From assembly GCA_044892505.1 (NCBI GenBank), contig CM097882.1:511934001-511998000 (forward strand): a stretch of DNA of 64,000 bases, written 5' to 3'. The notes under the pieces are model-generated. The model searched no databases and was not told the DNA's origin. It was given only the letters and a program-made list of their open reading frames with translations. Within the stretch, counting starts at the first letter, position 1; every line of letters starts with the position of its first letter. Origin of the DNA: Schmidtea nova. Its lineage: Eukaryota. The translations under genes were made by a program, and so were the position numbers. Below, piece after piece: positions 1 to 32,100 of this stretch.

Positions 1-180
1 ACAAATTCGCAGTTAGCGCGTATTCTACCGGTTGCTGTGTTTTGATTCATCTTCACCTTTTGGCGTTTTCCACTTAATTGTTGGATTTTTAATGGAAGCT
101 AAGGTTAAAAATGGAATCTTGCGCGTTCTCTACCTATGGGGTTATCGCTTTATTAAAACAAATTGCGTTTTGGCCCAACA
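1..180 (-). repeat. LTR copy, partial (3' LTR if the element is minus-sense)
   Basis: No mismatch seen against 17208-17387 over 180 bp; the minus strand begins TGTTGGGCC. Confidence 0.8.
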
Positions 181-766: not shown

Positions 767-1579
767 TTATTGTTTATAGAAATAATTCATCTGCACCGAG
801 GTTGTAGATGTCTCAGGATTAGGAGGTTCTGGAACTGGATCTTCAAATATTGATCTTAGAAAATTCTCTGACGGGTTGTTGTCTTCATGGGTGATTCGTT
901 TAATGGTATTCAACTGGATTTTTGCTTTCTCTAATTTCATTTTTTCTACTCCGATTGATGCAACAATGCTAAGGATCATTATGACCGTGAAAAGACTGAT
1001 GCCTTGTAGAACGACTGTGATGGCTGCTTCTCGGTCTCTGACGTCTTTGTTGGTTGATCCTTGTTTAGGGATAATCTCCCTTTGCTTTTCGGGTAATATC
1101 AATTGTTTTATAATTCTCTCGGTTTGATGAAGTTGAGTTTTTAGTTTTTGATTTAACTCCTCTGTGAAACTTGATCTTTCCTCATTAACTTCATCTTTAT
1201 TATTTAGAGATTTTTCTATTAACTTGCTCAATTTCTTTAGTTCGGTTGTTAACTGTTTGAAGAATGATTGGCTTTCGAGTTGTTTCTTTAGTTGAAGATT
1301 GTTTCTTTTGGTTAAGGAGATTTGTAATTGGATTAATTGTTGAGTTTCATTTCTCAATTGTTTAAGGATGGTGATTGAATCTTCTCTGGATTGGGGACAT
1401 TGTTGACATTGCAGTTGGATCTGTTGACACTCCTCATTTCTGGTGATACAAATTTCTTGATAGCTTACACATATGCTATCGGCTCTTCTAAATGGATGGC
1501 TTGCATAACATTGACTCAATGCTTCTTCGCTTCGGCAGTTTGTAATTATAAATACCACGATGGTTGTTGTGATCCTCAT
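767..1579 (-). CDS. Predicted type-I membrane protein (signal peptide, Cys-rich segment, coiled coil, TM helix, cytoplasmic tail); last ORF of the cassette
   Basis: 270-aa open ORF. Hydrophobic N-terminus MRITTTIVVFIITNCRS, six Cys in aa 24-61, heptad-rich middle, TM-like AAITVVLQGISLFTVIMILSIVASIGV. Confidence 0.75.
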   Translation of the reverse strand: MRITTTIVVFIITNCRSEEALSQCYASHPFRRADSICVSYQEICITRNEECQQIQLQCQQCPQSREDSITILKQLRNETQQLIQLQISLTKRNNLQLKKQLESQSFFKQLTTELKKLSKLIEKSLNNKDEVNEERSSFTEELNQKLKTQLHQTERIIKQLILPEKQREIIPKQGSTNKDVRDREAAITVVLQGISLFTVIMILSIVASIGVEKMKLEKAKIQLNTIKRITHEDNNPSENFLRSIFEDPVPEPPNPETSTTSVQMNYFYKQ

Positions 1580-1686
1580 TAGATTGCTCTTTTTCTATAG
1601 ATTTATAGATTCAAATTTGTTTAATGATTTGTCAACTTTTCTCTTTTATATTTTTACAGGGATATTTACATGAGTTTAGATATATT

Positions 1687-2262
1687 TTATTCTTTCGTCT
1701 CTTCATTTAGCTTTAGCGGACTTTCTGGCTTCCAGTTACCCATTTTTGCAATCTCGTCTGCTTCTTTTCGCCTTTGTTCTTTGAGGACGTAATTTTCTGC
1801 CGTTTTGATTTCTACAACTTTCTTTGCTTTGAACGTATCAAATTTTGCTTCGATGATTTCACTTTTCAACTTTATTATCTGTTTCTCTCTTTTTATAATC
1901 TTTTTCTGTTTGTTCTTCAATGATCGTTGTAATGACTCGATCGTAATTCTCCTTTTATTATCAGTGTTCTGTTCACTGCTTATTTCCCTTTTGAGTCTGT
2001 CAATCTCTTGCTTCTGTCTGTCGCAATATTTTTGAGTGAGACCATTTTGTTGGCGAAATAGATAATTTTCTCGCTTGATTATTTCCATCGTCTCGCACTC
2101 TTGCTCTATTTGTGCGATATATTTTCTATCTTTGCTCACTACTTCCTTCAATTGGTCTATTTGGTTTTGATAATATTGCTCTGTTGCTCTTTTCCATTTT
2201 TTGAATCTTTCTTTTGATATCGTTTGTTGTTCTGGTTCTGATCTTTGCTTCAATAATCTCAT
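1687..2262 (-). CDS. Coiled-coil protein of unknown function (element cargo)
   Basis: 191-aa open ORF, K/E/Q/I/L heptad composition, acceptor TTATAG 3 nt before the ATG. Confidence 0.7.
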   Translation of the reverse strand: MRLLKQRSEPEQQTISKERFKKWKRATEQYYQNQIDQLKEVVSKDRKYIAQIEQECETMEIIKRENYLFRQQNGLTQKYCDRQKQEIDRLKREISSEQNTDNKRRITIESLQRSLKNKQKKIIKREKQIIKLKSEIIEAKFDTFKAKKVVEIKTAENYVLKEQRRKEADEIAKMGNWKPESPLKLNEETKE

Positions 2263-2526
2263 TTTCTATAATTTGAATTTTCATAACTCTTTTCTACAGT
2301 TTTATTAATTTTGTTTTTGTTTTTATCATTTTTATCATTTTCTAATTTTTATTTGTTTTTCATTTTTTTTTTTTTTCTAATTTTTATTGAATTTTTATTT
2401 TTTCTGCTTTTTATTTAATTTTTTTTGGATATATTTTACAACTTTTGCTTTTTACATTTCTTTACAACGTTTTCTTTTTACACTACCTTTCAATTTCTTT
2501 TTACACTTTACATTCACTTTTATTAT

Positions 2527-3210
2527 TTATACAAACGTCTCTTCAATTTCTCCGAACCCTTCATCTTCGATTTGAGGATTTTCTTGCTCCAAATGTACAG
2601 GTTGTATTGGTGTTGGATATAGTGGCCATAGAATTATTGGAGGTTGATTTTGTAGGCTCTGAACTCTCTCTCGCAAAGTTCTTGAGATTTCTATCTCTTC
2701 ATCTAGCAAATAGGTCATATAATCGAGTTCTTCACTCAGCTGTTCCTTTTCTATCTCGAGCTCTCTCGTATTTTCCATGTTTTTCAACCTTTCAATCTCT
2801 CTTTCATAGTTTTGGCGGTTTTCTTCCAAACTTTGGATAGCCATTTCAATCTCATACTGCGATTGCTGGATCGCTTTCTCACATTCGGCCTTTGTTTCTT
2901 CTATCTGCCGTCGCTGGTGTTGAATGACAATGTCTTTATGCGTATTTGTTCCTCGATATCCGTTGACTTCACGGTTTGCAATAGTCAATTCAATTGTCAA
3001 TTCTTCAATACTTCTATCATCCATGTTTTTCTGTTGATCATATTGCCTGTTTTCAAATTCCAGATATTTGATACGAGCTTCTTGATTCCTGGTAAATTTC
3101 ATTCTCCTTTGATTCCATTCGGTTTTTAATTGAATTTGCCGTCTTAATTCTTTGTTTTCTATCTCTTGCTTTTCTGCATTTTCCCATAATTCTGCTTCAT
3201 TTATTGACAT
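2527..3210 (-). CDS. Coiled-coil protein; reading frame is open upstream to 3372 and overlaps the preceding ORF in the -1 frame
   Basis: 227-aa ORF rich in E/Q/R/N heptads; no stop in this frame between 3372 and 2530. Confidence 0.65.
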   Translation of the reverse strand: MSINEAELWENAEKQEIENKELRRQIQLKTEWNQRRMKFTRNQEARIKYLEFENRQYDQQKNMDDRSIEELTIELTIANREVNGYRGTNTHKDIVIQHQRRQIEETKAECEKAIQQSQYEIEMAIQSLEENRQNYEREIERLKNMENTRELEIEKEQLSEELDYMTYLLDEEIEISRTLRERVQSLQNQPPIILWPLYPTPIQPVHLEQENPQIEDEGFGEIEETFV

Positions 3211-3305
3211 CAGCTTCTTTGGGAATTCGCGTAGTTCGTCTCGAGTTCTTTTCCAGGTCTTTTTCCATGTTCTGGCTTGTTCTATTAGCCACTTTATTTG
3301 ATGCT

Positions 3306-4070
3306 TTATGCTTCTTTCTCTGAACTGTCCGTTTTCAACTGGAATATTTCTTTTCTGAGTTTCTCCGTTTCCTCATGACGTATGTCTGCATACCAATGAC
3401 ATTCCTCTTTCAGAGCGTCGATTTGAACGTCTCTCCGTCTTAGTAATTCTTCCTGTAACATTTTTCTGTGTCGAGCCATTTCCAATAAATCTTGGTGTTC
3501 TTGTTTCCATTTCCTAGCCTCTGCTTTAACTTTTCTAATTATCTTTTCTTGTTCGCTTTCAGGTTCAATGTTTCTTGTTCTGACTTTAAGCTTCTTTTGA
3601 GGTTGTCCTCTCAAGGCAAATGCTTCATCTCGACACTTTTCCCATTTCTTTTTCATGGCTTCATATCTGTTTCTTTCACTTTCGAGTTGTTGCTGATAGA
3701 ATCTTATGGAGTTGTCATACCTTGTTTCGGTATCTCTTTTATAAGTTTCGAGCTCATCTTTTCTTAATCTCGCTTGGTTTTTCAACGGTACCGACTTTCG
3801 TTGTTCGTGCTCGAGTTTTCTCTCCATTTCTTTGTACTCTCGTTTATAATTTTCTAGTTCGGCTTCGATATGCGCCTTGTCGATTATTATCTTTCGTAGT
3901 TCCTCATTTTCCTCTTTTATTTTATTGATCTCTTGGGTTCGTTTTTCAATCATTTTAACGTTCTCTTGGATGGCTTCCATTCTTTGTTCATAATTTCTCA
4001 TTTGATTTAGTTGCTCTTGTCTTTTGGCCATCTCCTGATCTAGGATGTCTATCAATTGTTGTATATTCAT
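3306..4070 (-). CDS. Long coiled-coil (SMC/myosin-tail-like composition) protein
   Basis: 254-aa open ORF of E/K/R/Q heptads, acceptor TTTCAG 1 nt before the ATG. Confidence 0.7.
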   Translation of the reverse strand: MNIQQLIDILDQEMAKRQEQLNQMRNYEQRMEAIQENVKMIEKRTQEINKIKEENEELRKIIIDKAHIEAELENYKREYKEMERKLEHEQRKSVPLKNQARLRKDELETYKRDTETRYDNSIRFYQQQLESERNRYEAMKKKWEKCRDEAFALRGQPQKKLKVRTRNIEPESEQEKIIRKVKAEARKWKQEHQDLLEMARHRKMLQEELLRRRDVQIDALKEECHWYADIRHEETEKLRKEIFQLKTDSSEKEA

Positions 4071-4205
4071 TCTGAAATAATAATAACATGGGTAATTTCC
4101 TTTTGTTTATACATTTTTTTGTTACTCATGCTTATTAAATAATACTTGTATACATCAATTGAAATTAAAATCTTTACAATTTATTTACAAAGTTGCTTAT
4201 TTGGA

Positions 4206-4655
4206 TTATTGATCGGCATAACGGAGATATAATAAATTTCTGTTTACACTTTCTGTTAACAAAGCTTGTTCATTTTTCCATTGTGCATAGGCTTGATTCA
4301 ACATCCTGCTTAATAATTCACATTGCGTTTTCCATGATAACTCTTGCGTCATTGTCTGCTGATAAACCATCGGAGCTGATATTGATTGAGTCTGGCTATT
4401 TGTTAGTTGTTGATTTAATATGAATGTCGTTTGAATTGGGTTCATGGTTTCATCAAATAGTGGAATTTCGACTTGGTATATCAGATTTCTATCATCAATT
4501 GTTGGATTTTGCGTTTCATTTTCGATTACTGGGGTTTGCAGTGACCTTTCTCTTTCTCGTATATTGGTATCTTCTGGAAACTGAATTTGATTTGATGGTT
4601 CATTGAACGTTGGAACTGATGTTTGATAACTTTGACTCTCGTTGTTCGGATTCAT
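4206..4655 (-). CDS. Q/N/T-rich protein with a C-terminal helical segment, unknown function
   Basis: The ORF track starts at a TTG (4664); the first ATG is at 4655, 2 nt after acceptor TTGACAG. About 149 aa. Confidence 0.6.
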   Translation of the reverse strand: MNPNNESQSYQTSVPTFNEPSNQIQFPEDTNIRERERSLQTPVIENETQNPTIDDRNLIYQVEIPLFDETMNPIQTTFILNQQLTNSQTQSISAPMVYQQTMTQELSWKTQCELLSRMLNQAYAQWKNEQALLTESVNRNLLYLRYADQ

Positions 4656-4806
4656 TTCTGTCAATAATTACACAATATTATCATTTGTTTTTCCCAGTTT
4701 TTAGGTATTCAATTTTTTGGATTTTTAAATTTTTATTATACAAATATATTCTACTTTTATAGTACAATATAATTTTATACACTATATACACTGTTCCTTC
4801 CACTGG

Positions 4807-7800
4807 TTACTCTGACAACTTGCGTTTCGACGACATCCTGATGTTCTCATCTGGCTCGTCGGTTAATATGACTTTTATGTCTTCTTGGGTGACTTTTGAA
4901 CCATTATGTGTTACTATCTGACATACGAGTGTTCTAAACATTTCTTGTGCTGCTTTCCTTTTGTAAATCCAGATTTTGTATTTTGCATCCCGCTTCAATC
5001 CATTTATTCGGATTTCTCCTCTTTCTGCTCGTTGGCATTTGACTGGATTATCTCCTTTACTTTGCAAGTTGATGCTACTCCAACATGCTTCTTCATTATC
5101 TGCTCCTGATGTTAATACTTGTACTGGTTTTCCCTTGTCATCAGCTTCCGTTCCTTTCAATGTTGACAGCATCAGTTTCAGCAATATTATGTCTTTTATT
5201 CGAGTTTTATGTAGACATGCTGTTCGTTTTTCATAATTTGAAGTTTCTTGCTTGAGTTCATCACTTTTGTTCCCAATTTCATCGTTATTGCTTTTTCCAT
5301 CATCTTTCTCGTCTTTGTCATTGTTTCTGTTGATACTTTCATTGTCATCTTTCTTTGTTTTGTTGTTGTTATTCCCTTCATCTTCATCGTCAGGCTTATT
5401 GTGATAATCCGAACCACCCTCGGTTTCGTTTAAAATGTCGTCCTCGACATTTATTAGTTTTATTATTTCCTCATATCTTTTCGCTATTTCATCTGCTTCG
5501 GCTTTTATATTTGCTCTCTTGGTTATTTCATCTTTGGCGTTGTTCCAGCTTCGGTGAATTCTGCTTTCTTTTATATTTTCCTTCCATATGATGACTTGCT
5601 GATATAATTCATGTCTTTTAGCTCCAATTCTTTCTTTTTCTTTTTTGTTGTTCGTAAACCTGAAATCAGGTCTTTGCAGCAATGCTTTAATCGTTTTACA
5701 CATTTTCCATTTTCTTTTCATGGCTCTTTTCATTATCATATTTTCACCGTCTTCAAATCTGTCATTGACATTTATCACTCCTTCGTGCGTAACTGGATGT
5801 AACCATTTAATCATTTTTGCTGTTGTTTCGTCGGCATCTTTGTTCACTGCATTTACTAATGGATTTGGATCTGAACTGAGCACTTCAATATCTTCTTCTG
5901 TAGCATTTGACATAATATATTTGATTATTTGATGGTTATTTGCTTGCACTGCATAAGATAACACCGTTTCATTTTTATCATCTCTTTCTTTAAAACTTGA
6001 TCCGGTTCTCATCAGTTCTGCTATGAGTTTCTTGGATCCTCCTTTTTCAATTGCTACCATCAAGGGTGTTTGATCTTTCCAGTTTTTCGTGTTGGTATGT
6101 TGCTTGCACTTTTCCATGAGTTTTATGATTTCAAACATTCTCTGTTCATTCCCACTTTTTATTGCGTGATACAATGGTATCTCATCTTTAAAACTGGCAA
6201 TTGTAAATAATATTGGTAATCTTTCTTTTATGGTATTCATCGCTTCTGTCGTTTCATTTCCTTTAGCATATTCCTCAACCATTAAGCTTACTCCTCCCAA
6301 TATTTCAAATAGATTTTTACTTTTTGACCATTCTGGCATAATTTCTTTGGTAATCTCAATGATCAATTCCATCTTTTTGCGGTGCTCCATTTTTACATCG
6401 TCAACTATCTTAGGTTGTTCAGATATTGTTGTCGGCTGATTTACTTTTCTGCTCGCAGTTAATATACGATGTAGCCAATCGTCATTTTTATTCTCTCGAA
6501 ACATACATACTTGTCCTTTTCTGGTCATTTCTTGATTTGATTGTTCTGTCGCTGTTTCTCTTGTGCAATTTTCTTCAATTTGGTGTTTCAACTTCATCGT
6601 ATTCAAATCAATTACAGATCCTTTTAACAGTTTTGGTATTAAGTCTGTTCCAATAATGCATGATGCACCCAGTTGTTTTATTACTGTCAAATAAGTTGAT
6701 ATTTTTACATTTCTGTATTCGATGTCCGTCCATATTTTTCCAACGATATTGACAGATTCTTTGCTGCATGTTATTACGTCTACTGATGTTTTCTCAATGC
6801 ATGACCATAACAATTCTGGTATCATGTCGATATCTATTGCTGATATATTTGCGCCAGTATCTATCATCGCGTCTACTTTTACGCCATTAACTTCGATGTT
6901 AATTGTAAGTGTTGGTCCAGCTGGAGTTTTCATCATTGCCATTATCGTTGTTTTGGGATTATCTTCACCTGTCGCTTTTCTGGTCAACTCGCTTCCTACA
7001 ATTTTATCAACAGTTAATTTATTACTTGTTTCGATTTGTATCGGGGTTACACCGATTTCTATATCATCATCCAGCGATTCTCCATCATATTTCAAGTGAA
7101 ATGGTAAATTGAATGGTAATCTCTCTTTTATCTCTTTGATCTTTGTTGTTAATGATACATTCATCTCTATTTCTTCTATACTCGGAAACTGAATTTTCAA
7201 TCTGCACATCTGTGGGTCATCGTTTGTTTGTTCCAGTTGTTTCCATTTTCTCATGATGTCATCAAATTGTGTTAAATACCAAGGGCATAAACGTCTGCAT
7301 TTCTCGATTTCTCTCACTATTAATCTCATGTTTGATATATTTGCACTATTTTTTATAACCCATTTTAGTAATTCGGTTGTTGTTTCACATTGATTTCCTG
7401 CACTCTTGCTTAGGTTACTGATTAATCGTTCGGTCTTTGACGTCTCTGTTTGTCTTGGTCTTTCGAGCTTCGCTGATTTCCTCTTTTCCTCCGACTTCTG
7501 ATTCATTTTCGTCATTTCTTCTATGGAAATGGTTAACAATCTTTGTGCCACTTCTTCTAATTTGATTGTCGTAGATTCATCCCATTTCTCGTCCATGCTA
7601 CATGTATCATCATTGCTTCTTCTTTCTCTTCTTTTTCGGTTATATTTCTCCACAAACTTCTTCTTTTCTTCTCCCTCCATATCTTTTACTGAAAATTCAT
7701 ATACATTTCCCTTTCTTTCGATTTCAACGTCTGATAATTCGGTTATCATTTCATTTACTTTTCCTTCGATATTCCGTTGTAGTTGCATTTTCATTGTTAC

Positions 7801-7917
7801 TACTTCTTTTTCTTCTTCCTGTAAATTATCTTCTACTTTTGGACTGGTTAGTCTCTGCTCCTCTTTTAATAAATTATCTTCTGAGTTTACACTGGTAATT
7901 TTCTGATTCTCCTCCAT
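4807..7917 (-). CDS. 1036-aa multidomain protein: ubiquitin-like domain + retropepsin-type aspartic protease + ankyrin repeats + FN3-like C-terminal domain
   Basis: Ubl pattern aa ~237-305 (EIEMNVSLTTKIKEIKERL...HLKYDGESLDDD). Protease aa ~335-445 (IEVNGVKVDAMIDTGANISAI...CIIGTDL). Ankyrin repeats aa ~577-755 (PLYHAIKSGN, DQTPLMVAIEKG, ETVLSYAVQANN, NPLVNAV). IRINGLKRDAKYKIWI resembles the FN3 E-F strands (weakest call). Confidence 0.85.
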   Translation of the reverse strand: MEENQKITSVNSEDNLLKEEQRLTSPKVEDNLQEEEKEVVTMKMQLQRNIEGKVNEMITELSDVEIERKGNVYEFSVKDMEGEEKKKFVEKYNRKRRERRSNDDTCSMDEKWDESTTIKLEEVAQRLLTISIEEMTKMNQKSEEKRKSAKLERPRQTETSKTERLISNLSKSAGNQCETTTELLKWVIKNSANISNMRLIVREIEKCRRLCPWYLTQFDDIMRKWKQLEQTNDDPQMCRLKIQFPSIEEIEMNVSLTTKIKEIKERLPFNLPFHLKYDGESLDDDIEIGVTPIQIETSNKLTVDKIVGSELTRKATGEDNPKTTIMAMMKTPAGPTLTINIEVNGVKVDAMIDTGANISAIDIDMIPELLWSCIEKTSVDVITCSKESVNIVGKIWTDIEYRNVKISTYLTVIKQLGASCIIGTDLIPKLLKGSVIDLNTMKLKHQIEENCTRETATEQSNQEMTRKGQVCMFRENKNDDWLHRILTASRKVNQPTTISEQPKIVDDVKMEHRKKMELIIEITKEIMPEWSKSKNLFEILGGVSLMVEEYAKGNETTEAMNTIKERLPILFTIASFKDEIPLYHAIKSGNEQRMFEIIKLMEKCKQHTNTKNWKDQTPLMVAIEKGGSKKLIAELMRTGSSFKERDDKNETVLSYAVQANNHQIIKYIMSNATEEDIEVLSSDPNPLVNAVNKDADETTAKMIKWLHPVTHEGVINVNDRFEDGENMIMKRAMKRKWKMCKTIKALLQRPDFRFTNNKKEKERIGAKRHELYQQVIIWKENIKESRIHRSWNNAKDEITKRANIKAEADEIAKRYEEIIKLINVEDDILNETEGGSDYHNKPDDEDEGNNNNKTKKDDNESINRNNDKDEKDDGKSNNDEIGNKSDELKQETSNYEKRTACLHKTRIKDIILLKLMLSTLKGTEADDKGKPVQVLTSGADNEEACWSSINLQSKGDNPVKCQRAERGEIRINGLKRDAKYKIWIYKRKAAQEMFRTLVCQIVTHNGSKVTQEDIKVILTDEPDENIRMSSKRKLSE

Positions 7918-8674
7918 TTCTTTCTGAAAATCGGCTACAAACTTTCTAATATTGTGGATTTTACTTCTTTATTTCTCAGTTTTATTTCTTTTTAATTTCC
8001 TCTCGTCGTTTTTAATAGATTTGACTCTTTATCTTTCGACTTTACGAACTTGGTTGGTGTGGTAATATTGTCAATTTGTGTTTAATATCGATTGCTGATC
8101 TTTCTTTTATCTTCAATTGGATCTTCTTCGATTTATTTTCTTTTACTTCTTTCCTTTTCAATTAGACTTCTTTTTCTTCTTTTCTTCTATATATACCTCT
8201 TCAATAACTGATTGATTTGACTGTTTCTTGACTTGTCTTTGATCTGTTGGACAATCTAAATAAAAATATCGCTTCTTCATCGACGCCATTTACCCCCCTT
8301 TTACTCTGAGCTCAGATTTTAAATTATCTATATCTCGTAATAATTATCTATATGGTCGTATCAATTATCTATACCCTGATAATAACAATAATAATAACAA
8401 TAATAATACTATAATAACAATAGGATCCTGTCGACTCGTTTTCATACTCATCTCGGTGTTCGAGGTAATAAAAAAAATGTCTTGTTCATTATCTATTCAT
8501 GGCCATTATTTTATTTCCTAGGTATTTCTCGATATCTTTGTCTGCTCTTGTTAACGGTTTCTCTTACTACATCTTAAGTATTCGCGTTCAACGTTTCTCT
8601 CTATCATAACAAAATTATAACTGCAGTTTTATTTAATTCTATTTCTCAAACGTTTTTCCTAAATTTCTCAACAA

Positions 8675-9296
8675 TATTCACAAACATTGGACTCTCAAAG
8701 TCTCTCACATACATGAACTCTCAAAGTTTCTCAATATTCACAAACATTGGACTCTCAAAGTCTCTCACATACATGAACTCTCAAAGTTTCTCAATTATCT
8801 GGACTCTCAAAGTCTCTCATACATGAACTCTCAAAGTTTCTCAATTATCTGGACTCTCAAAGTCTCTCATACATGAACTCTCAAAGTTTCTCAATTATCT
8901 GGACTCTCAAAGTCTCTCAATTATCTGGACTCTCAAAGTCTCTCCCAGAGCGCTCAATTATCTGGACTCTCAAAGTCTCTAAATTACCTGGACTCTCAAA
9001 GTCTCTCAATTATCTGGACTCTCAAAGTCTCTCAATTATCTGGACTCTCAAAGTCTCTCAATTATCTGGACTCTCAAAGTCTCTCAATTATCTGGACTCT
9101 CAAAGTCTCTCAATTATCTGGACTCTCAAAGTCTCTCAATTATCTGGACTCTCAAAGTCTCTTACATACATGAACTCTCAAAGTTTCTCAATTATCTGGA
9201 CTCTCAAAGTCTCTCACATACATGAACTCTCAAAGTTTCTCAATTATCTGGACTCTCAAAGTCTCTCGCATACATGAACTCTCAAAGTTTCTCAAT
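8675..9296. repeat. Minisatellite array, ~26-bp period, about 23 copies of the core ACTCTCAAAGT with two alternating variants
   Basis: Units TGGACTCTCAAAGTCTCTCAATTATC and CATGAACTCTCAAAGTTTCTCAATTATC read directly from the sequence. Confidence 0.95.
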
Positions 9297-10322
9297 TTTT
9301 CTCGGCCGTCTTCGATTATTCTCTTTATACTATTTAATCACTCGCTTTCCTATTCTCGATTTTTAATTTTTCACAAATAAATTCGCTGTTACTGACTGGT
9401 TTTCTCAAATTGTTCTACTACTTCTCAGTTACGAGTTTCTTAACTACCATGGTAAATTTTTCTACTATAATCGTCGGAATTCACTTTCTACTCTTTCGAC
9501 TTTCTAAAATCTGCAGCATCTTTCTCTTTATTAATGTTACTGTCCTCTACCTCAGTGTACCAATCATGCCTTGGCAAACTGGTGTATAAGACGAACATTA
9601 CGGGTTAAGCCCTTTCACCTAATTCAAAATCGTAAAATAATCGCGTTAACTCGTTTCGCAATTTGTGATGATCAGTCACAAACGAAATTTCGCCAACATA
9701 TGCGATGGATATCCTATTCTACTCTCTTTCCTCAAGGTGATCAAGTTTTTTCCCCGTTTGTTGTCTACTAATTTTTCAACAATAATAAAAAAAATTGGCG
9801 TACTATCTTTTGATAGCTCTGTTAAAATTTGGCGTACTATCTTTTGATAGCTCAGTTATGAATTTGTGTACTATTTTCCTGTTTCCTACTCAGACACTCA
9901 TTTATCGCTCTATTTCAGAAGATTCTCCTTATAAAATCAACTCCTATAACGCTACTTATTGCTCGTCCTAATTCATACATATTTATATATATAATGATCA
10001 GTATAATAATGATAATCAATATAATAATGGTAATAAGAAAGATTATAATAATGAAATTCGGTTCAATATAATAATGATGAGGAGGATTTATAATAATAAT
10101 AATAAAGAAAATTCAAAAAGAAAAGAAAATAACTTTGCCACAAATTCCCATTTTCCTAATGTTTGATTTTTCGGCATTAGCCGTTACTTGTTATGTTTTT
10201 TCACGATTCTCAGTTATTAATTACCTAGTGTTTTTTGTTTATTTAATTTTTATAACGGTTTGTATTACTGGATGATCGACGAAGTTCAACACGACTAAAA
10301 CGTTTATTTCGAACGACATTCT

Positions 10323-10805
10323 TTATGAACAGAATACGACGATTTTGTCATCAATTGTCTGTTTGCAGATTACGCATCGCTTTATTTCTCTAGAGCACGG
10401 CTGGCAATAACACAAATGCCCACATGGCATGAACAAAATGTTCGCTTCTTTTTGTCGACAAATATAGCATCCTTCAAACGAATCGATCTGTTGATTTACC
10501 GATCTCTCTAGCTTGTCCATGATTTTATCGATTTTACCAATCCATTCTTGTATTTTTAGATTAAAATTTGGATTATTCAGTCGCAATCGTTGTAATTCGT
10601 AAATTGTTTCTAACGAAACATCGTTTGTTGTTCCTACAATTCCTGCAATCACTATTAGGTTCTCAGGTTGTGGTCTAGGATTCAACAATAATTCATCTTT
10701 TATTCCATTTACTCGTTCGAGTTTCTCGCTCAACACCTGCAATGGGTCATTTTTAAAATCGAAAAACAACTCGATTCGTAGTAAAATATGCTCAATCGAT
10801 TCCAT
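10323..10805 (-). CDS. RING-HC (C3HC4, IAP/XIAP-like C-terminal type) putative E3 ubiquitin ligase with a helical N-terminus
   Basis: CYICRQKEANILFMPCGHLCYCQPCSREIKRCVICKQTIDDKIVVF at the C-terminus; acceptor TTTTAG directly abuts the ATG. Confidence 0.85.
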   Translation of the reverse strand: MESIEHILLRIELFFDFKNDPLQVLSEKLERVNGIKDELLLNPRPQPENLIVIAGIVGTTNDVSLETIYELQRLRLNNPNFNLKIQEWIGKIDKIMDKLERSVNQQIDSFEGCYICRQKEANILFMPCGHLCYCQPCSREIKRCVICKQTIDDKIVVFCS

Positions 10806-11955: not shown

Positions 11956-13099
11956 GCGTTATACGGCAATTTACCCAATATATTTCTTATATATTATTAC
12001 GTAATAATTATAATAAAAATATAATAAATCCGTCTTATTTTTATATTATTTGACCAAATTACTGTTTTTACTGTTAAAAATGGCAATAATAATAATCCTG
12101 ATACCTATACTATCATTATTACTTGGTGTTACTGCTTTCTTGGGTCAAAATTCCAAAATTTCTTCAGTCTTTTAAATTTCTTAGCGGCGATTTTCTACAC
12201 TTTTTGCGGATTCCGGTGTCATATTCTATCTTTCGAGGTATTTTCCACTTGCCAGTGCTGCGTACTCACTTTCTATGCTCTATGGACGTTGTTTGAACAA
12301 TTTTACGATTTTTGGTTGTTTGTGGGATTCATTTGTCGCGGTTTGGTGTTTTTACTATTTTAGCCGTGATTTTCTTAGACTTTTGGCCCATTCCGGCTCA
12401 ACTTTTTATCTTATGCTATGTTTGATGTTTATTTATATTAAAGACACTTATTCTACGCTCTGTTGTTATTATTCATTCTCATTTTCAATCGTTGGCTGTT
12501 CGTGGGGCTTAAAGATCGTTTTTACGGCTTAACTTTTATTCGCTTTCGCGGTGATTTTGATTCGGAACTTTTTATTTTCCAAATTTTTCCAAATCTTAAT
12601 TCAAAATGGTACTTAAAATAATATTCTCTACNNNNNNNNNNNNNNNNNNNNNNNNNNNNNNNNNNNNNNNNNNNNNNNNNNNNNNNNNNNNNNNNNNNNN
12701 NNNNNNNNNNNNNNNNNNNNNNNNNNNNNNNNNNNNNNNNNNNNNNNNNNNNNNNNNNNNNNNNNNNNNNNNNNNNNNNNNNNNNNNNNNNNNNNNNNNN
12801 NNNNNNAATCCTAATAATAATACTTAATATGGTATAAAATAACTATTGTCGTAAAAATAATAATAGTAATATAAATAATATTAATAATCAAGCATAAATT
12901 TTTTCCCATTTTCGTCGAAAATACTCAAATGATTATTGATTTTTATAAAACTTTCACCAAATCTCGTTTTTCTTTAAAATACTTTTATCTTTCCAACGCA
13001 AAAACATTAATAAATTCCCACGTAAAGTCATTTCCATTGATTTTCGCTTCAAACAAAACAAACTAGATGGGATGTATCCCGGCTGAGCCCCCAAATTTT

Positions 13100-13317
13100 T
13101 ATATGGTGGGTTGTTGACCGTCAATATGACCTTGACGTTTCCATGGCTCTCATCGGACAACCCAACACATAAAATATTGAAATTACCACCTTGTTACCCG
13201 TCACTATGTAACGTTGGTACTGTAACAAGTGGGTGGGTATTCGCAATCAGTGAGCGTCGTCAATACGAAACTATGATTGACCGAATATCTCCTGGGTCCA
13301 AGGGCTACCGATAGAAG
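13100..13317 (+). repeat. Copy of a diverged interspersed repeat; homologous to 17520-17737 in inverted orientation
   Basis: GAAACTATGATTGACCGAATATCTCCTGGGTCCAAGGGCTACCGATA aligns with the reverse complement of 17522-17570, and the alignment extends ~220 bp. Confidence 0.75.
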
Positions 13318-16300
13318 GTTTCTTGCCCTTTTTGTCCCCTTCTTCGACGATTTATCTTTAAGCATTCAACAAAATTTTATCGGCAATTCAACATTAATAT
13401 TCTACCTAACTATAAATTTATTATTGCATTCAAATAAATCATTCCGAGCATCAAAACACTAATAAAACATTAAATTTTACTTATATTATAATTTATGTTA
13501 ATTATTAATGAAAGTATTCTAAAATAAAATTTTTAATTTACATTTGCATTTACGATAAAATCAAGACTTTAATTCTTAATTTGTGAAAAATATTTTAATG
13601 CTACATTAGGTTTTTTTCTATTTTCATTTTTATATTTATAACTAATTTACTTTTATAACTAATTGATATTCCGAAACAATTTGTTTCAATCCATCATTCA
13701 ATCAACAACAAGCCGAACACCATTCAAATTCACCAAGCATAATTTTCTACGCAAATCATTTCTCTCTATTGGCAAAACAAGTAAATTTTTAAGTTAAGTG
13801 ATCTGCTGAAATTAATTCTTTTCATAGCCCTCAATTTCAAAACACAGATGGAAACTCAGTTCGGAAATCTTAGCAACAACGTCTTATCACTTTAATCTAT
13901 TTGACAGATTTGAATATCTAACAATTATCCAAACAATTAATCCAATTGACAAATCCCAATTAATCAACAATCCGCGACAATGTCTAATGATCATGACTCC
14001 AATAAACCAGCGTTGTGGTCATCCATGTCAGTGACAAATACTGCTTAACAATATCTTTTCTTAGTGCTGAATTTAATATATGTACTTTATTTGCATTTTT
14101 ACTTTTTATGTAAAATGGTTTTTATCATACAAAAGGGTAACAATTAATTATTTTAATTAAAATACTTAAAGTTTTGCTAGACGAAATATAATAATCTTTG
14201 AATTTCATGTGAAAATAAATTGATTGTCACTAGATGAAATATAATATTATTTTAAAATAATATACCAAATTTTACTTTAAAAGGCACCATAAATTCACAA
14301 TAATACAATTTTTTAACTTAAACATTATTGATTTTAAAGGCAATCTTGAAAACTTCCTAATATCCGTTACAAATAAAAAGGTTCCACACCAAATGTTTGT
14401 GGTGGGTGAATGGATGAAACCTTGGCATTGTCTTTTTGGAGGTATGCATGTTTACGTATGATGTGGGATACTATCATTTCGAGCTTGATTGTTGATACAC
14501 TTTTACAGGTTTATTATGAATTGTTCATTGATAGTACAGGAGATTGTATGTGATTATATGTGTCTGTATGTTGACTTGAATGTTGGATGAGAATAAATAA
14601 TTTATTTGGTGGATGAGGTGTAGTATGATGACTGTGTGTTCTATTGTTACTGTTGGGTTTGTGTGTGATTGTATGATGAGTGATTTAAAACAATTGAGTG
14701 CTTGTGAGTGTGGTTAGACGAACGATTCTAACTAGAATGTCTGTGTGGAATTTTGATAAGGTTTGTTGGTGTGTATGTGATTGTTGGATGTTATTGAATG
14801 GTACTGTGCATGTGTGTGTATTGTATTTTATGTGTATGTTGTTTGTATATTAATATGGATGATGCTATTGAGTGAAAAGGGTGTAAATCTTTGCAATGAG
14901 TGATGTATTATTATTTTAAGATGTCGTGGGGGGTTATATTATAAATTAAATAAATTGTATAAAATATTTTTTAAGTTAAAAATAAAAAAAATTTAAAATT
15001 AAACTAATGGTAATGATTTTTAGATCAAGATAATAATAATAATTTTTAGATCGAAATAATAATAATAATTCTCATAATACTTTTTTACAAATTTTTAAGT
15101 TTTAAAATTTCTACGAAAAACAATTAACGATAAGGTTTATAATTTTTTATAATGTCGATTTGAATTTACAATTTTTATACTTTAAGAATAGATAAAAAAA
15201 ATTTCTATAAAATCTCGAATTCAGATTTTTTATAAAATAATAAAATTTATTAATATAATAATAAAATTTCAATCTAAATTTTCATGGGGTTTAATATAAC
15301 TTTTGATTTTCAAATTCTCGGGAATTTTACGAAATGATAAAATCTTTCATATATTAATAACATTAGGAACTAAATTTGGTTTACAATTTTTCCATATAAA
15401 ATCTTTTCAACATAATAAAAAGCAAATTTCTATTTCTGATCCAAATGAAATGATAATAAATTTTTATCCATAAATTCGAGATCTAAATAAGCATTTAATC
15501 TAAAAAATTTTATATGCTAAATAAAAATAAAATAAAAATAAGTTACAAATTTTTCAGCGAATATTTTTAACCTCAAGCAAAGTAAATTTCGGTTTTGTTG
15601 AGCATGAATTTCCCAATTAAGTGTACGCGAACCTTTCGGGACACTTCACTCAGGAATTTCAGGCTCTCGAAAAACAAGATTCACAGGAAAACTTATTTAG
15701 ACCACAACGAGCTTTAATTCAGATTAAATCAATACTTGTTTCACAATTTATTTCACTTCATGAGCATTATTCTAGACTTTGAGCATTATTTCGAACCATT
15801 TTCTTTTCATCATCAGCATCCATTTTACTTGCATTTTCTTATGAGATGAACGTTGTTGAGAGTGTGAAGGTGAAGGCGAGTACGAGTCGATTTTTTAATC
15901 AATAATATTTCCTATTTTAGATTTCAAGACATGAGTTAGAAATTATTATGTTGTATTACGAAATTGCTTATGTAGATAATAAAAATATGATACTCTATTA
16001 TAATACAAATCATTAGTATAACAAAACCTTGCTCTTGGCCAAACCGCGATTCCCCAGTTGGGATGACGCGAATTTGGATGTATGAGCCTCACCTTAAAGT
16101 GGAAATATGGGCTGGCCGATTACCAATCAGACAACGATCCACCCAGGCTACTAACAGATCCGCACAACCAAGGCTGGACGGATCGTCAGAAGATATGGGA
16201 GAAAAAAAAAAATTTTTTATTTATTTTCATAATTAAATTTAGTTATCGAATTTCAATGAGATCTTTCCTGAATTATTTTGGGAAATTGTGGCTCGTGATA

Positions 16301-16482
16301 ATGATTATGACAACAAAAAAACTAAGTTATTAATCATGAAAATACTTTAATAATATAAAATTGACCATAATAAATAAAATGACAAATAACATATTAAATA
16401 AAAAAAGGGGGGAATGGGATGATCGTCAGGCATGACGGACGACCATTCCAATCCCCAATGAGAATAACCAAAATCAAACAAA

Positions 16483-16491
16483 TCCTTACGT
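16483..16491 (-). promoter_or_regulatory. Candidate major splice donor in the element leader (AC|GTAAGG, GT at 16489-16488)
   Basis: Consensus-like 5' splice site ~280 nt downstream of the putative PBS; use is not demonstrated. Confidence 0.35.
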
Positions 16492-16752
16492 TTGTCCAAT
16501 TAACTTCTGCTACGATTTCTTTCAAACAAATTAATTTTTTCTTAGAAATTTGGAACGATTTTTCCACAAATTTTCTTGGAATCAACTTCTGATAGTAACT
16601 TCTTGGAATCAAATTCTGATATTAGCTTTTCTCTTCTCTTCTTGAAATCAAATTAGCTTTTCTTCTTGCAATCAAATTCTCAAGTTGGATTTCACAAAAG
16701 TTATTTTTCGCAATTTCTCCGTAAATTAATCAAGAAAAATTTTCCACCAAAT

Positions 16753-16770
16753 TCTGTCTGAAATCTGCCA
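16753..16770 (-). promoter_or_regulatory. Putative primer-binding site TGGCAGATTTCAGACAG
   Basis: TGG starts 3 nt (AAA) after the proposed LTR end ...CCATCA; I cannot assign the tRNA. Confidence 0.4.
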
Positions 16771-16773
16771 TTT

Positions 16774-17387
16774 TGATGGCGGTATATATACCATCAAATT
16801 TTTTCTACCTCCGGTAGTGCAATAAAACAAATTGTTCTAGAAGTTTCTCTTAATTTTTTCTAAATTAATTCTAATGATTTTCCGAAAATTAATTCCATAT
16901 TTTTGTATAATAATTTTTTATAAACTATAAATAATTTATTTTAATTAAAAATTTTTATGTTTGAATCGAAATTTGTTCGATTTGATTTAATTTATGATTT
17001 TCGATCCATATTAATTCTTTCTATTGTTATATGTGAAATTTTGTGATAAATTCACAATTTTCCTCTAGAATTGTGTTAATTTTTCTGCACTGAGGATTTT
17101 TATGACAAAATTCTGTTCTTTATGGGCACTTTCAATGGGTTTTCCGCCTATTCTAGCTTCCAAACATTCTGCTTTTAATTTCTCTCGAGATTTCCGTGGA
17201 AATATTTACAAATTCGCAGTTAGCGCGTATTCTACCGGTTGCTGTGTTTTGATTCATCTTCACCTTTTGGCGTTTTCCACTTAATTGTTGGATTTTTAAT
17301 GGAAGCTAAGGTTAAAAATGGAATCTTGCGCGTTCTCTACCTATGGGGTTATCGCTTTATTAAAACAAATTGCGTTTTGGCCCAACA
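16774..17387 (-). repeat. Proposed full 614-bp LTR (5' LTR)
   Basis: TG...CA termini (minus strand TGTTGG...CCATCA). The distal 180 bp are duplicated at 1-180. The right boundary is firm; the left boundary is inferred. Confidence 0.6.
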
Positions 17388-23641: not shown

Positions 23642-26600
23642 AAATGCCGGCCTTAGACAATTTTGTTTTATAGGCAAGAATAGAAATTCCACCATAACTG
23701 GGTTTAGTTTTCTAAGAAAAATCTTTAATTTCTATTTATTTTGAAGTATAAATCCAAAATATGAAAATGTGAAATTTTTATAATTTTATTACAAGTTTTC
23801 AACACAGATTTTTAAATTTTGGCAACTTTATAAAAGTTGAGAGTTTTTAATAGGCTTATAGGTAGTTGATTTTAAGAAACCTTTTTTTGCATTAAAAAGT
23901 AATGAAAAACCAAAATGTTTGAAATGGTATGTTTATAAAACACTAAAAGTATTTATTAGTTGATTTCATGAAAAATATGCTTTTCTAGCATTTGTAGAAG
24001 CAAACTCCTGAATTATATTGGTCATATCCAACTCTTCTACAATCGTGCTCTCTATAGATATCTTAGCTAAATCTACCAAACGATTCTGAGACATGGTAGA
24101 ACGAAGATATGTTTTTATAAGTTTGAACTTCGAAAAGCTTCTCTTTGCACTCGCAACTGTTATCGGAAGTGTAAGCAAAATTCGCAATGCCACGTACACG
24201 TTTGGAAAAAGAGTAACCAAGCCCATTCCACATACATAGTCTAATATAACTCTGGGGCTTGATTTTTCAGTAATCTTTCTTGATAAAGCAAATAACTCAT
24301 CGCACAGTTCTGTTGCATTAATGTCTGCTGAATCCTCATTTTTAAATGTTAAAGCTAATTGAAGGTCCATGCAATCTTTGAAAATTTCATTTTATCACAT
24401 TTCTCTAGATTTTTAATGTCATACAAATATCCAAATAAGTCACTGTGAGATGTTAACTGCATAAACCGATCATTAACTGATTGAATTGCGGTATCCAATA
24501 TCTGATTAAAAGAATTTACTCTAAAATTCTTTTCTAGCTCAAGAATTGGATTGTCTGGAAATTCATAGTCTAATTGTCTCTTTCTTCGTCGAGATCTTAT
24601 CTGTATTTCCTTAGGGAAAGTGTATTCAATACCAAGTTCTTCTGCCAATGAATTAGCGATTGTAATTGCTTTAGAAAAAATTTTAATTTGTTCTGTAATT
24701 CTGGGGTATAGTTTTAGTAGCATTCAATTGTTGAATTGATTTTTTTAAATCAAGATCTGTTTCTTGAAACATTTTGCTAGATATGTTGATCTCAAATAAA
24801 ATATCATACCAAATCACTATTGAACAAACAAATTTGAAATCGAGCATTTTTGTGAAATTCTCTTAGCTTCTGCACGTGACTGGGTTTCATATTGTCCAGT
24901 AAGTGAAACGTCATCAGAAATTGAAACGAGTACATCGTAAATTTCAACTGTTTGGTATCGAATTACCTTCACAGCATTAACTAGACTTTCCCAACGTGTT
25001 GCGCATAACTTTTTAACATTTAAACCTGCAGCTTCTTTGTTTTTGACATGTTCTAACAATACATTCCAGCGATGTGTTGATGCAGAAAAAAAGTGTATAT
25101 ATTTTGAATTAAATCAAAAAACGTTACTTTTTTAAACAACAGTTTATGGCATCATTAACTACCAAATTCAATGAATGTGCATTACATGGGACAAAAAGGT
25201 TCTTCGATTTAGTTCTCTAACTCTTGCTTGGACACCATTATGCATTGCCCGCATGTTCGCTTATCATAGCCTTGTCTTCTCATATCATCTAGAAAAATTC
25301 CTGAATCTGATAAATCTTTAAGTAAAATTTCCACCATACTTGCACCTGTAAATTTTTCAAGTTCTACGAATCAAATAAAATGCTCATTGATAGAAACTTC
25401 TGAAGGTTTGTCAGTAGTTGCTTTATTTTCTGTAACAAATCTAACGAACATTGTCATCTATTCTTTATGACTGACTTCTGGTGTGCAATCTATTATTATA
25501 GAGTAATATTTTGCATCTGTAAAATCATTAATCACTTTCTTTTTTACTTTTTTACTAAAAAGTTAATAATCTCATTCTGAATATTTTTTCCTAAATAATG
25601 GTCGTAAATTTTATCTGATTTTCTACGTCTTATATGTTCTTTCATTATCAGATCAGATTAAGCAATAACTTTAACAAATGTCAAAAAGTTACCATTATGA
25701 GGCGTATATAACCGACCAGACTGTTCTCTCAAGGACAAATTTTGAACTCCATGTACTCTGACCAAAGATATTATTCTTTCTAATACATTTTTCCAATGTT
25801 TGGCTTCACGATTTATAAGGCACTAATTCAGGTCATCAATGGTTTTATTATTTGCAATCCTCATTTTTTGTTTTTTCCAATCATGATAATTGCTTAAATG
25901 ATCTGGTGATTTTTCATGGTGCTTCAATATACTTGACATATTTTCCCAGTCACAACTGTCATGTTTTGCTAAGGCAGATATACTCCTGTTATGTACTTTG
26001 CAGCAAAAACAATATACCTTATTCACTGACGTGGAATACATCAACCATGGTCTTTTTAAAGTTTCTCCGTTAGCCAGTTTGCGTGTATAGTGGTAATTAG
26101 AAAATTGTCTTCCACCTTCATCTTTTGGATAACCAGACTCTAATTTGATCTGCTTTGGATCATGCTGAATAAGAAAACAACGAATATTATCATTTATATC
26201 TGGCCATTTACCGGGATCCTCCATTATATCTGAATCTAATTTTGTTAAATTCAGACTTGCATTCCCATGTTCATAAGTATGATCTTCAATTTCTTGCACT
26301 GCCTGAGGTTCTATCATTTCAGTAACATCAATGTCGTCAATCTCACCTTTTGTTGAAAATATCTGAGGAATGAATTGAGACTATGAAACTGCTGCGGAAG
26401 AACACGGCATGTTGTAATAAACATCACTTACATTTGATTCCGATAGTGATATGCATTTTCTATTGGTTACTTTGTTAGAAACTGAGTTATTGTAGAGCTC
26501 TGACTCTTTATCACTATTACGCAATTCATTCCATTTTTAAAAAAATTTGAAAATAGATCCTTTCTGTGTTTCTATGAACGAATTTTTTGCATTTATTTTC

Positions 26601-26740
26601 TTCATATACTGTGCTGCAGTTAAACGGCTGCGCTTTCCCGTGTTAGCCTTGCCCATGATGGGTAAAAACTGTAAAATTAGAAAATAAATAATGCCACTAT
26701 AGACAGTCGCTTATGTCGCCTATGCCTAAAGCCAGCGCTG
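23642..26740 (-). mobile_element. hAT DNA transposon (ZMYM1-like/DUF4371 transposase), defective
   Basis: Imperfect 15-bp TIRs (AAATGCCGGCCTTAG / CAGCGCTGGCTTTAG). 8-bp TSD TTCACATA (23634-41) vs CTCACATA (26741-48). Confidence 0.85.
23966..26657 (-). pseudogene. hAT transposase: TTF-type Zn finger, DUF4371-like region, hAT C-terminal dimerisation domain; frameshifted
   Basis: WLMYSTSVNKVYCFCCK; LCATRWES; LRILLTLPITVASAKRSFSKFKLIKTYLRSTMSQNRL, spread over several frames. Confidence 0.9.
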
Positions 26741-27514
26741 CTCACATAAGTGCATCTTAATTATCTATTACCCTATGCTATCACATATCTATCTTAATTC
26801 CTTCAAAAGTAATTCACCAAAATGATAAATACTCCTTTGTAATCCCCTTTTCTCCCGTCCAAATATGGTTCAAAGTCGCTGCATCGGCCCAACCCCCGAA
26901 GGAGTCACAGCTGAGGGGCTTTTCACCTCGGGGTCAACAACCACCGAGGCGCAATTTATGGATTTTACCCCTGATATTATGAGGGTTTACACACAAATGC
27001 ATAGAACAAAATTTCACTTCAAAATTTTATTATAAACTACCAAAAATGATAATGACAAAATATTACAATCAAATCAAATACAAAATCATACTTGCGAACT
27101 CAACTGGCTGACGAAATACAAAATTGTACTCACTGCAAAATTAATGCCAAGTAAGTTTAGATTGTGATTTTTCAGCGTCTATTTATACTAAATCTATTGA
27201 AGCTTATATGTTATTATTTAAATCATGATTTTAACGATTCAACTTACTTATTGTTTTTAATAAGTGATTATTTATTTATAAATTTAATTTTATAATTCTA
27301 TTTATTTATTTTCTAAAATATTTGTTTTTAATTCCATTAAATAATATGTATATCCAGTTTTTGTACGTTAATTGATTAATTAAAACAATCAAATTTAATT
27401 TAAATAATAAAAAAACTTGGCAATGATTTAATAATAGAAAAACTAAGTAAATTCAACATAAACGCGATATATTTTGATTGTATAACAATCTTCTTCAGGC
27501 AGCAATCAGGACAA

Positions 27515-30497: not shown

Positions 30498-32100
30498 TTA
30501 CTTAAACACATTCAAAATATCCGTGGAACGGGCAACTTGATCATTTATTTTTGGATTTAAATATCTAATCAACACTGACTCACAAATTACTCGTTCCCAA
30601 TAATTACTTAAACCTTTTAAAATTATTTTAAAATCAGAGATACCTATTTTTTACTGACACATTTCCTAAAATGATCACTAATATTAGTCAGTCCTTTTTG
30701 TCGGCAATGCTCAAGAACTCGGGTGCAGAGATGACGGGCAGTCTCTCCAATGTATGTGGCATTACACCCATTACATGAAAATTGATACACGAGCTCAGAA
30801 CACAAACCAATTGGCGTTGGACATTTACTAGTGAACATACTGCTAGCTTTGCAAGACGTGGAAACAATCCTTAATTGATCCTTGTCTACATGTTTGAGAA
30901 TCTTATGCTTAAATTCTCTGAAGCCCTCAGAATAAAGAAATTCCAATACATATTTCGGCTTAGTGCGATTAGATCGATTTTTGTCACTTTCCGAAATTAA
31001 CAATGTACTTTTATCATAATCAAAAAGTACCTCAGATTCAGACACACCCATACCAAAATTATTAGAATTCAACATTAACTTATCCAAGGTCACTTTTGTC
31101 ATTTTCGCAAGAAAAGATTTAGAGTAACCATTTTAAGTAACAACTCAAACAATACATCAATACTTTTTACTGAATTAACAAACGTAAAAGATAGTGACCA
31201 AGCACGAAACACCAATCCTCTCACCATACTCCTTTTATATTTAAATTCACAAAACCTCTCAGACGTTGTATACAGACCAGTATCAGTCGACTTTCTATAT
31301 ATTTCAGTCTCATAATGTTTCGACTTGCGTTGGACGAGTAAATCTGAAAATGCAATCGACGACATTTTTTCTTCTTCACAAGTGAATTTAATATTCTCAT
31401 GCAAATTATTCATATAATTCAAAAAAGACATTACATGTTCAGGACTCTCAAACACCAATAACATATCATCCACATACCGTTTGTATGTGGTTGGTTTAAC
31501 AAGATGGCATGAAGACATTTTCCTTTCCAAACTAGATATAAAAAGGGAATCCATATTTGGGGTAATGGAGAACCCATAGCAACTTCATCCACTTGTTTAT
31601 ACCATTCATTGTTAAACAAAATATTAACATTCGACGTTGCAAATTCAAGGAATTTTCGAAACGCAATTTTATCAACATTCTTATGTTTGACATAAACATA
31701 AATCATTCGTTTCCGCCAACGGAACATCAGTAAAAAGACTACAAACATCAAACGAAACCATAATTCCATCATCAGAATTTTTCTTCAACGCAGCAATGAC
31801 TGAAGCAAATTCAAAGCTATCCTTACATTCAAACTCAGAAATAATTAAAGGTTTTAATAATCCATCCAAAAATTTGGTTATTTTATATTGAGCAGTTCCT
31901 ACCATCGATAACACTGGTCTCATGGGTTTACCTACTTTATGTACTTTTGGAAATCCATAAAGCTTTGCTGGTTGAGATCCTTTCGGTTTTAGGGATTTAA
32001 CCAAATCTATATCAATATTTTATCACCAGACAGTTTATTCAACAGTTCATCCTTTTATATAAAATTTTGTCAAATTGGACACTATTTTTGGAACGGAAGA
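30498..32100 (-). mobile_element. Penelope-like retroelement (RT + GIY-YIG endonuclease), 5'-truncated and frameshifted
   Basis: KLYGFPKVHK..PMRPVLS, VSFDVCSLFT, VAMGSPL, YKRYVDDML, IYRKSTDTG; GIY-YIG VYQFSCNGCNATYIGETARHLCTRVLEH. Stop codon at 30500-30498, followed by (CAACATT)n. Confidence 0.92.

Follow-up and report, generated by a model that had tools for sequence, protein, structure and literature searches.

A Gag-less, protease-keeping and cargo-bearing LTR element of Schmidtea nova as a probable high-copy satellite of a Burro-type retroelement

The stretch of DNA analyzed in this work comprises 64,000 nucleotides of the Schmidtea nova genome (NCBI GenBank assembly GCA_044892505.1, contig CM097882.1, positions 511,934,001 to 511,998,000 of the forward strand) and is referred to as the window, positions without a locus name being those of the window. 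Within it, an open reading frame (ORF) on the minus strand, ORF1 (4807..7917), was predicted to join a ubiquitin-like (Ubl) domain, a retropepsin-type protease (PR), ankyrin repeats and an FN3-like domain in one protein. ORF1 was found to be housed in a 21.5-kb long terminal repeat (LTR) element, which is probably a high-copy satellite of the Burro elements that lacks replication enzymes, is likely copied in trans by a full-length relative (the helper) and encodes a protease predicted to be self-processing. Burro1/GYPSM1 and Burro2-4 are giant Gypsy-like LTR elements of dugesiid planarians, and the Burro section of PMC6431247 describes them as exceeding 30 kb, as encoding polyproteins of 4,873 and 5,140 amino acids (aa) and as possessing SUMO-like (Ubi2, located after MATH), MATH, ankyrin and BIR domains, a BIR gene in the family and an envelope protein (Env) that is in frame before the protease. 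The original prediction, derived from the letters of the DNA, had regarded ORF1 as a retroelement protease whose pol partners were replaced by protein-interaction domains, yielding either a mimic of DDI1/DDI2 or a polyprotein that releases an ankyrin effector by self-processing.

The evidence which carries the satellite reading starts from the helper. In the same genome, a giant polyprotein of ~5,000 aa was found behind the same junction of LTR and primer-binding site (PBS) as the ORF1 element, whereby the helper ORF was assembled from two adjacent stretches of 2,833 and 2,173 codons and the entire helper element measures ~25 kb. Pfam matches of the first stretch are Retrotrans_gag, zf-CCHC, MATH, a viral fusion glycoprotein and PR, while the second stretch matches reverse transcriptase (RT), RNase H (RH), integrase (IN), Ank and fn3, which gives the order Gag-CCHC-MATH-Ubl-Env-PR-RT-RH-IN-ANK-FN3s-TM (TM, transmembrane segment); RT and RNase H matches are present in six of six helper copies. 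Judged by its architecture, the helper family is Burro-type, with the match made to the published description. Shared with Burro as described there are Gag-CCHC, MATH, the position of the SUMO-like domain, gag-pol with an in-frame Env, PR-RT-RH-IN, ankyrins, long LTRs and tandem repeats, whereas the helper differs in its length of ~25 kb instead of more than 30 kb. The helper segment at the Ubl position is without a Pfam match of its own and is 64% identical to the SUMO-like domain of ORF1. BCL2-like and dUTPase-like motifs gave no Pfam match in the helper segments where they were expected; a Burro dUTPase was detected by HHpred in the part of PMC6431247 concerned with Burro. The helper C-terminus (L065:4585-6519, plus strand) follows the integrase and resembles a type I membrane protein, in that a hydrophobic signal-like stretch is succeeded by several FN3-like repeats, then by a transmembrane segment and finally by a short tail; the Burro section of PMC6431247 makes no mention of such an FN3/transmembrane tail. 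The helper was found by sampling LTR-PBS junctions; a genome-wide RVT_1 search had returned other Gypsy families and not the helper. As parents of ORF1, two further giant families with env (about 3,450 and 3,390 aa) were rejected, their PR being 26-28% identical and Ubl or ANK matches being absent. As an observation in its own right, two high-copy Gypsy families at L089:2-9667 and L093:60-9998 (both plus strand) possess ORFs of ~3,400 aa with an in-frame fusion glycoprotein before PR, one of them with a weak Bcl-2 match (E 0.034).

Four blocks of ORF1 are collinear with the helper polyprotein, as ORF1 49-161 aligns with helper 541-653 (43% identity), ORF1 173-331 with helper 1424-1582 (54%), ORF1 335-461, i.e., the protease, with helper 2749-2875 (65-76%) and ORF1 471-850 with helper ~3899-4281 (47%). 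ORF1 lacks Gag-CCHC as well as the MATH region, has lost most of the FN3-TM tail and is without two internal parts of the helper, namely the ~1,160 aa including Env that separate Ubl from protease and the ~1,000 aa that hold RT-RH-IN and separate protease from ankyrin linker. The Ubl-PR and PR-ANK adjacencies are therefore in-frame deletion joints, and every deletion joint of ORF1 preserves the reading frame. As aligned here, ORF1 is an internally deleted form of a giant Burro-type polyprotein, differing from Burro in having lost Gag, MATH, Env, RT, RH and IN. The original prediction was right in recognizing a retroelement protease with missing pol partners, the enzymes being absent and PR being 68-69% identical to that of the helper, but its view of a pol position replaced by interaction domains does not hold, as Ubl, ankyrins and FN3 are native to the Burro-type parent and were joined by deletion. 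Across the blocks, dN/dS between ORF1 and helper amounts to 0.08-0.30 and is lowest in PR (0.08-0.14). An independent deletion form that is close to the helper family was observed at L050:1567-4914 (plus strand; one of 40 sampled copies); it begins inside the integrase and keeps linker, ankyrins and FN3 repeats.

The frame of ORF1 is open from 4807 to 7968 on the minus strand (1,053 codons), with the first Met at 7917 and hence 1,036 aa from Met, and the ORF and domain positions originally given proved accurate, including that of the catalytic Asp of the DTG motif at 6861 (D370 of the frame, D353 counted from Met). The domain order is real, whereby its members are secured to different degrees. 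The retropepsin (6586..6921, with an IIGTD motif and a direct joint to the post-integrase linker near 6586) is firm, matching RVP over the Pfam cut-off (aa 356-447, E 2.8e-5) and yielding a confident model (blocks of predicted local distance difference test, pLDDT, 71-91) whose structural matches are retropepsins. Likewise firm are the about five ankyrin repeats (5661..6189), which are homologous to the post-integrase ankyrins of the helper (47% including linker); Ank_2 matches over cut-off at aa 599-689 (E 4.7e-10), a match that spans only the first few of five ankyrin-like anchors seen by eye at 6180, 6069, 5967, 5865 and 5745. The single FN3-like domain (4912..5184), a leftover of the helper tail with its several FN3-like repeats and transmembrane segment, is supported: there is no Pfam fn3 match in ORF1 itself, the modeled tail folds into a beta-sandwich (mean pLDDT 57), for which the top structural matches are mostly FN3 domains at a moderate level (Z 7.9, rmsd 3.0, 79 aligned), a profile including the helper's repeats matches fibronectin (E 7e-5, as a sum over three short stretches) and the helper's own tail matches Pfam fn3 (E 2e-5). 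The least secure domain is the SUMO/ubiquitin-like one (6996..7212), a weak call without a C-terminal di-Gly, which together with the preceding helical segment makes up the block shared with helper 1424-1582. It scores as SUMO-like rather than ubiquitin, with Rad60-SLD (PF11976) at aa 256-304 reaching E 0.04, or E 0.0011 for the isolated segment, both under the cut-off, while its model is of low confidence (pLDDT mostly <50) and its profile found no match in the PDB below E 0.4. The domain calls originally made thus stand by profile for retropepsin and ankyrins, by model and helper repeats for the FN3-like part, and weakly for Ubl. Word-index protein searches returned no ORF1 relatives of near or longer length, which counts for little because the parent is present in this very genome, and a HMMER library search with ORF1 gave only 25 weak matches, nearly all in the protease region.

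DDI1 and DDI2 have the layout Ubl-HDD-RVP-UBA, and ORF1 is like them in placing a ubiquitin-like fold N-terminal to a retropepsin of the same protease fold. It is very unlikely that the Ubl-protease fusion was selected as a DDI1/2 mimic, i.e., for acting on host proteins as a proteasome- or SUMO-targeted protease, although the Ubl stands right before the retropepsin, Ubl and PR share one frame in 28/29 short copies and, among solved structures, Ddi1 RVP domains match the ORF1 protease best, both in sequence (E 0.08) and in fold (E 1e-7), a resemblance taken as that of a shared fold. Ubl and protease both descend from the helper polyprotein, and the protease is 19% identical to that of host DDI1, far from its identity to the helper's PR. 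In a protease tree of 23 rows, which includes 14 of the 25 proteins from the HMMER library search, ORF1 and helper form an open group (88/86), and a clade of ORF1 with host DDI1 was rejected by the approximately unbiased (AU) test (p 0.025), so that the DDI-mimic idea finds no support in ancestry, although a DDI-like function might have arisen by convergence. Moreover, the ~25 aa between Ubl and PR are too few for the DDI helical domain, no Pfam match to UBA was found in ORF1 and the domain is SUMO-like by score. Judged from its sequence relations, ORF1 is not a DDI gene, differing in its separate origin, the SUMO-like domain, the missing HDD and UBA and the ankyrin/FN3 tail; it is of a type present in over a thousand mobile copies, and the host keeps a DDI1-like gene of its own (E 8e-41).

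The element around ORF1 was delimited by an LTR pair of 4,284 bp with zero mismatches. Its 5' LTR (13104..17387, minus strand) has TG...CA ends, and a 4-bp target-site duplication (TSD), TAAC, lies on both sides; the start of the 3' LTR occupies 1..180 (minus strand), with the remainder extending left of the window. The PBS (13076..13093, minus strand), located 10 nt past the LTR, is complementary over 18 nt to the 3' end of host tRNA-Pro(TGG) plus CCA. Paired LTRs, TSD and tRNA primer site identify a recently inserted LTR retroelement. Four-bp TSDs also flank two other short copies and two helper copies, and the LTR pairs of all five copies checked (three short, two helper), each with a 4-bp TSD, show 0-7 differences over ~4.1-4.4 kb. 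As to the primer tRNA of the element, tRNA-Pro(TGG) genes form a 308-bp tandem array at C1:459.6 Mb (L021), and the search pattern has 1,106 matches across the genome. Gag, Env, RT, RNase H and integrase are all missing from the window element, the matching helper blocks being deleted, and neither Gag, RT, RNase H nor integrase, nor any RT-sized frame, was found between the LTRs of the window copy and of three further loci scanned end to end. ORF1 has no counterpart of the helper Gag/CCHC (aa 155-444), and the other ORFs scanned gave no Gag match. Besides ORF1, the window element carries, on the minus strand, an upstream 160-aa ORF with a C-terminal C3HC4 RING (10323..10805; zf-C3HC4_3, E 1e-13), which is also upstream in helper copies (62-73% identity), an ORF2 remnant (4206..4667) that stops at a ~3-kb deletion with its joint near 4225, a coiled-coil ORF (2527..4106) of 527 aa in other copies and here split in two frames (3306-4106 and 2527-3372), and, in the region 767..2265, a further coiled-coil ORF (1687-2265) and a 275-aa ORF (767-1594) with, by eye, a signal-peptide-like start and a TM-like segment. 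Tandem repeats of 26/52 bp in the long 5' leader (8678..9297, without strand) are common to helper copies. The rest of the window holds broken frames at 23966-29499, 30644-31584, 33320-36206, 44988-47080 and 49373-50179, which by eye only resemble hAT transposases, Penelope-like RT/endonuclease, Helitron and Gypsy gag-protease.

In this AT-rich genome of 1.25 Gb, at least 150 places match the Ubl-protease segment at 94-100% identity, and the junction of LTR and PBS, taken as an exact pattern, was counted 2,111 times. The first 41 listed LTR-PBS places, minus one already examined, were taken as a sample of 40, and 10 kb of each were inspected (3.5-13.5 kb past the PBS), which gave 29 short copies with ORF1, six full-length helpers, one other deletion form and four with neither. 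None of the 29 short copies matched RT/RNase H probes in its 10-kb stretch. A 22-mer over the PR-linker joint, serving as marker of the short form, occurs 1,286 times and a 22-mer of the helper RT 231 times, these being counts of exact 22-mers and not of curated copies, with the markers present in 29/32 short and 6/6 helper copies checked. Marker counts and sample (29 vs 6) agree in that the short form outnumbers the helper about 5 to 1, and more than 1,200 copies of up to ~20 kb could, by rough estimate, occupy about 2% of the genome.

Many short copies carry host-like cargo. An intronless TRAF gene of 492 aa (RING, zf-TRAF, MATH; L017:5523-6998, plus strand) and an intronless IAP gene of 399 aa (BIR, RING; L017:7192-8388, plus strand) were observed, and TRAF and IAP genes are present in 17 of the 29 short copies. 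In six others their place is taken by a 484-aa ORF (L033:5091-6542, plus strand; of the same length in L036, L038, L058, L059 and L060) with, by eye, a signal-peptide-like start, an EGF-like cysteine pattern and a TM-like end, for which no firm Pfam match was obtained; six copies have neither. The window copy is without TRAF, IAP and the 484-aa ORF, its ~3-kb deletion having removed TRAF/IAP. The MATH domain of the TRAF is only 35-37% identical to that of the helper, and neither a BIR-RING IAP nor a full RING-zf-MATH TRAF was found in the helper stretches examined, which cover the upstream regions of two of the six helpers. Carriage of BIR-RING and full TRAF genes by the short element hence sets it apart from these helper stretches. 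For Burro1, a RING-BIR gene was reported to shield planarian stem cells against apoptosis (as cited in PMC13465017), and BURRO1 is described as expressed and PIWI-controlled in PMC8532177.

Purifying selection acts on ORF1 and on its TRAF, IAP and coiled-coil cargo. DTG is intact in 33/33 sequences (window, 29 sampled and three picked by similarity), and 16/29 short copies keep a frame that spans 1,036 codons or more. For variants shared by at least two copies, pN/pS of ORF1 is 0.29, as compared to 0.73 and 0.89 in the shifted frames (binomial p 2e-27), whereby shared variants include no stop codons and show a third-position excess (175/353); the corresponding pN/pS values of the cargo are 0.10 (TRAF), 0.18 (IAP) and 0.09 (coiled coil). 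That ORF1 is a relic, the element spreading by LTR and primer site alone and the selection signal being inherited from an autonomous ancestor, would accord with a dS of 1.4-1.7 to the helper that could have accumulated in an autonomous lineage, with the 13/29 copies without a full-length frame and with a cargo that is dispensable for a single insertion, since the window copy is without TRAF/IAP yet has identical LTRs. This is highly improbable, as selection is visible inside the short family itself, all joints keep the frame and no sequence has lost DTG. A role of the kept protease mainly on the helper, whereby it would aid or disturb maturation of the helper particle and tilt packaging to the short RNA, was also considered. 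Its conservation as the strongest among all blocks in comparison with the helper is as expected with shared substrates, and short copies do exceed helpers; within short copies, however, the ankyrin block is the most constrained (pN/pS 0.11 vs 0.31 for PR), and ORF1 is without Gag for entry into particles, so that this role appears unlikely.

The satellite reading is hence preferred, and a number of points weigh against it. Expression, cleavage and mobilization of the ORF1 element are predictions from its sequence. The dS of ORF1 to the helper is high, whereas the LTR ends are 88-95% identical; the coding parts thus separated long ago, and recombination or selection probably keeps the cis ends in step. 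Element units that stand in tandem and are separated by LTR sequence (L005-L010; L075-L077), among them a short copy that comes after a helper copy, offer a possible route for LTR exchange. The helper family sampled may be a sister and not the direct parent of ORF1, and a rarer, closer autonomous family is possible, for which 0/29 allows up to about 10%. The group of ORF1 and helper in the protease tree also takes in one long-branch row, the nearest solved structures are those of Ddi1, the copy ratio builds on exact marker words, and private variants have a pN/pS of 0.5, hence the shared/private split is imperfect, while mutation bias is not part of the pN/pS model.

For the satellite, the following course of events is suggested. 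The short RNA would be primed by tRNA-Pro, and helper proteins would package, reverse-transcribe and integrate it; this mobilization in trans we infer because near-identical LTR pairs occur in both families. ORF1, if expressed, would be translated and its protease would dimerize and cut ORF1 into SUMO-like, protease and ankyrin/FN3 products, whereby self-processing that releases the ankyrin piece, as the original prediction had offered as its alternative, is plausible from the domain arrangement. The ankyrin piece and the TRAF/IAP cargo may then act on host ubiquitin and apoptosis pathways, keeping the carrying cell alive and letting the element spread.

Non-autonomous LTR elements usually retain Gag or nothing, and helper-dependent transducing retroviruses trade replication genes for cell-regulatory cargo, their spread needing a helper. 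By analogy, the ORF1 element seems similar to the latter in helper dependence and cargo, and it differs in being endogenous, from an invertebrate, long under purifying selection, Gag-less and multi-ORF. Closer relatives in kind are the non-autonomous plant LTR elements known as TR-GAG / GAG-PROT and LARDs, which, according to PMC13570524, share with it the kept LTRs, PBS and TSD, the loss of RT/RH/IN, a length of >4 kb, partner dependence and, for some, a protease. In the same text those elements are either non-coding or still equipped with Gag, to which a protease may be added, while the ORF1 element lost Gag and kept the protease together with non-canonical domains and several host-like cargo ORFs under selection. 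With respect to an architecture already catalogued, SUMO-like, MATH, ankyrin and BIR domains of Burro are published, and the shortened order is not described in the Burro section of PMC6431247. Each ORF1 domain is known from Burro in that source, and what would be new is the Gag-less, protease-keeping cargo satellite. A Burro short form of this kind was not found in the literature searched, which leaves out two key Burro papers (the 2018 genome and 2026 Burro1 papers), and the word Burro is absent from the searchable supplements of PMC11410931 (three supplements, one file excepted); descriptions of Burro2-4 or repeat libraries may already include it.

The ORF1 element departs from the usual non-autonomous LTR elements in that it lacks Gag but has its protease intact and bears cell-regulatory cargo under purifying selection. 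More tentatively, a Burro lineage may have divided its labor between a helper for replication, now in the minority, and a more numerous cargo satellite, which gave up all replication genes, retained a protease for processing the SUMO-like/ankyrin mini-polyprotein and became the principal carrier of TRAF, IAP and membrane modules that would sustain host stem cells, a mutualism of host and transposon in which the Ubl-PR joint is possibly a new SUMO-directed protease. Moreover, ORF1 sets the puzzling SUMO-like and ankyrin domains of Burro in a protein of 1,000 aa without Env or RT, which renders their function testable. If it is true that the protective cargo rides the helper-dependent form, host benefit and replication would be divided between two elements.

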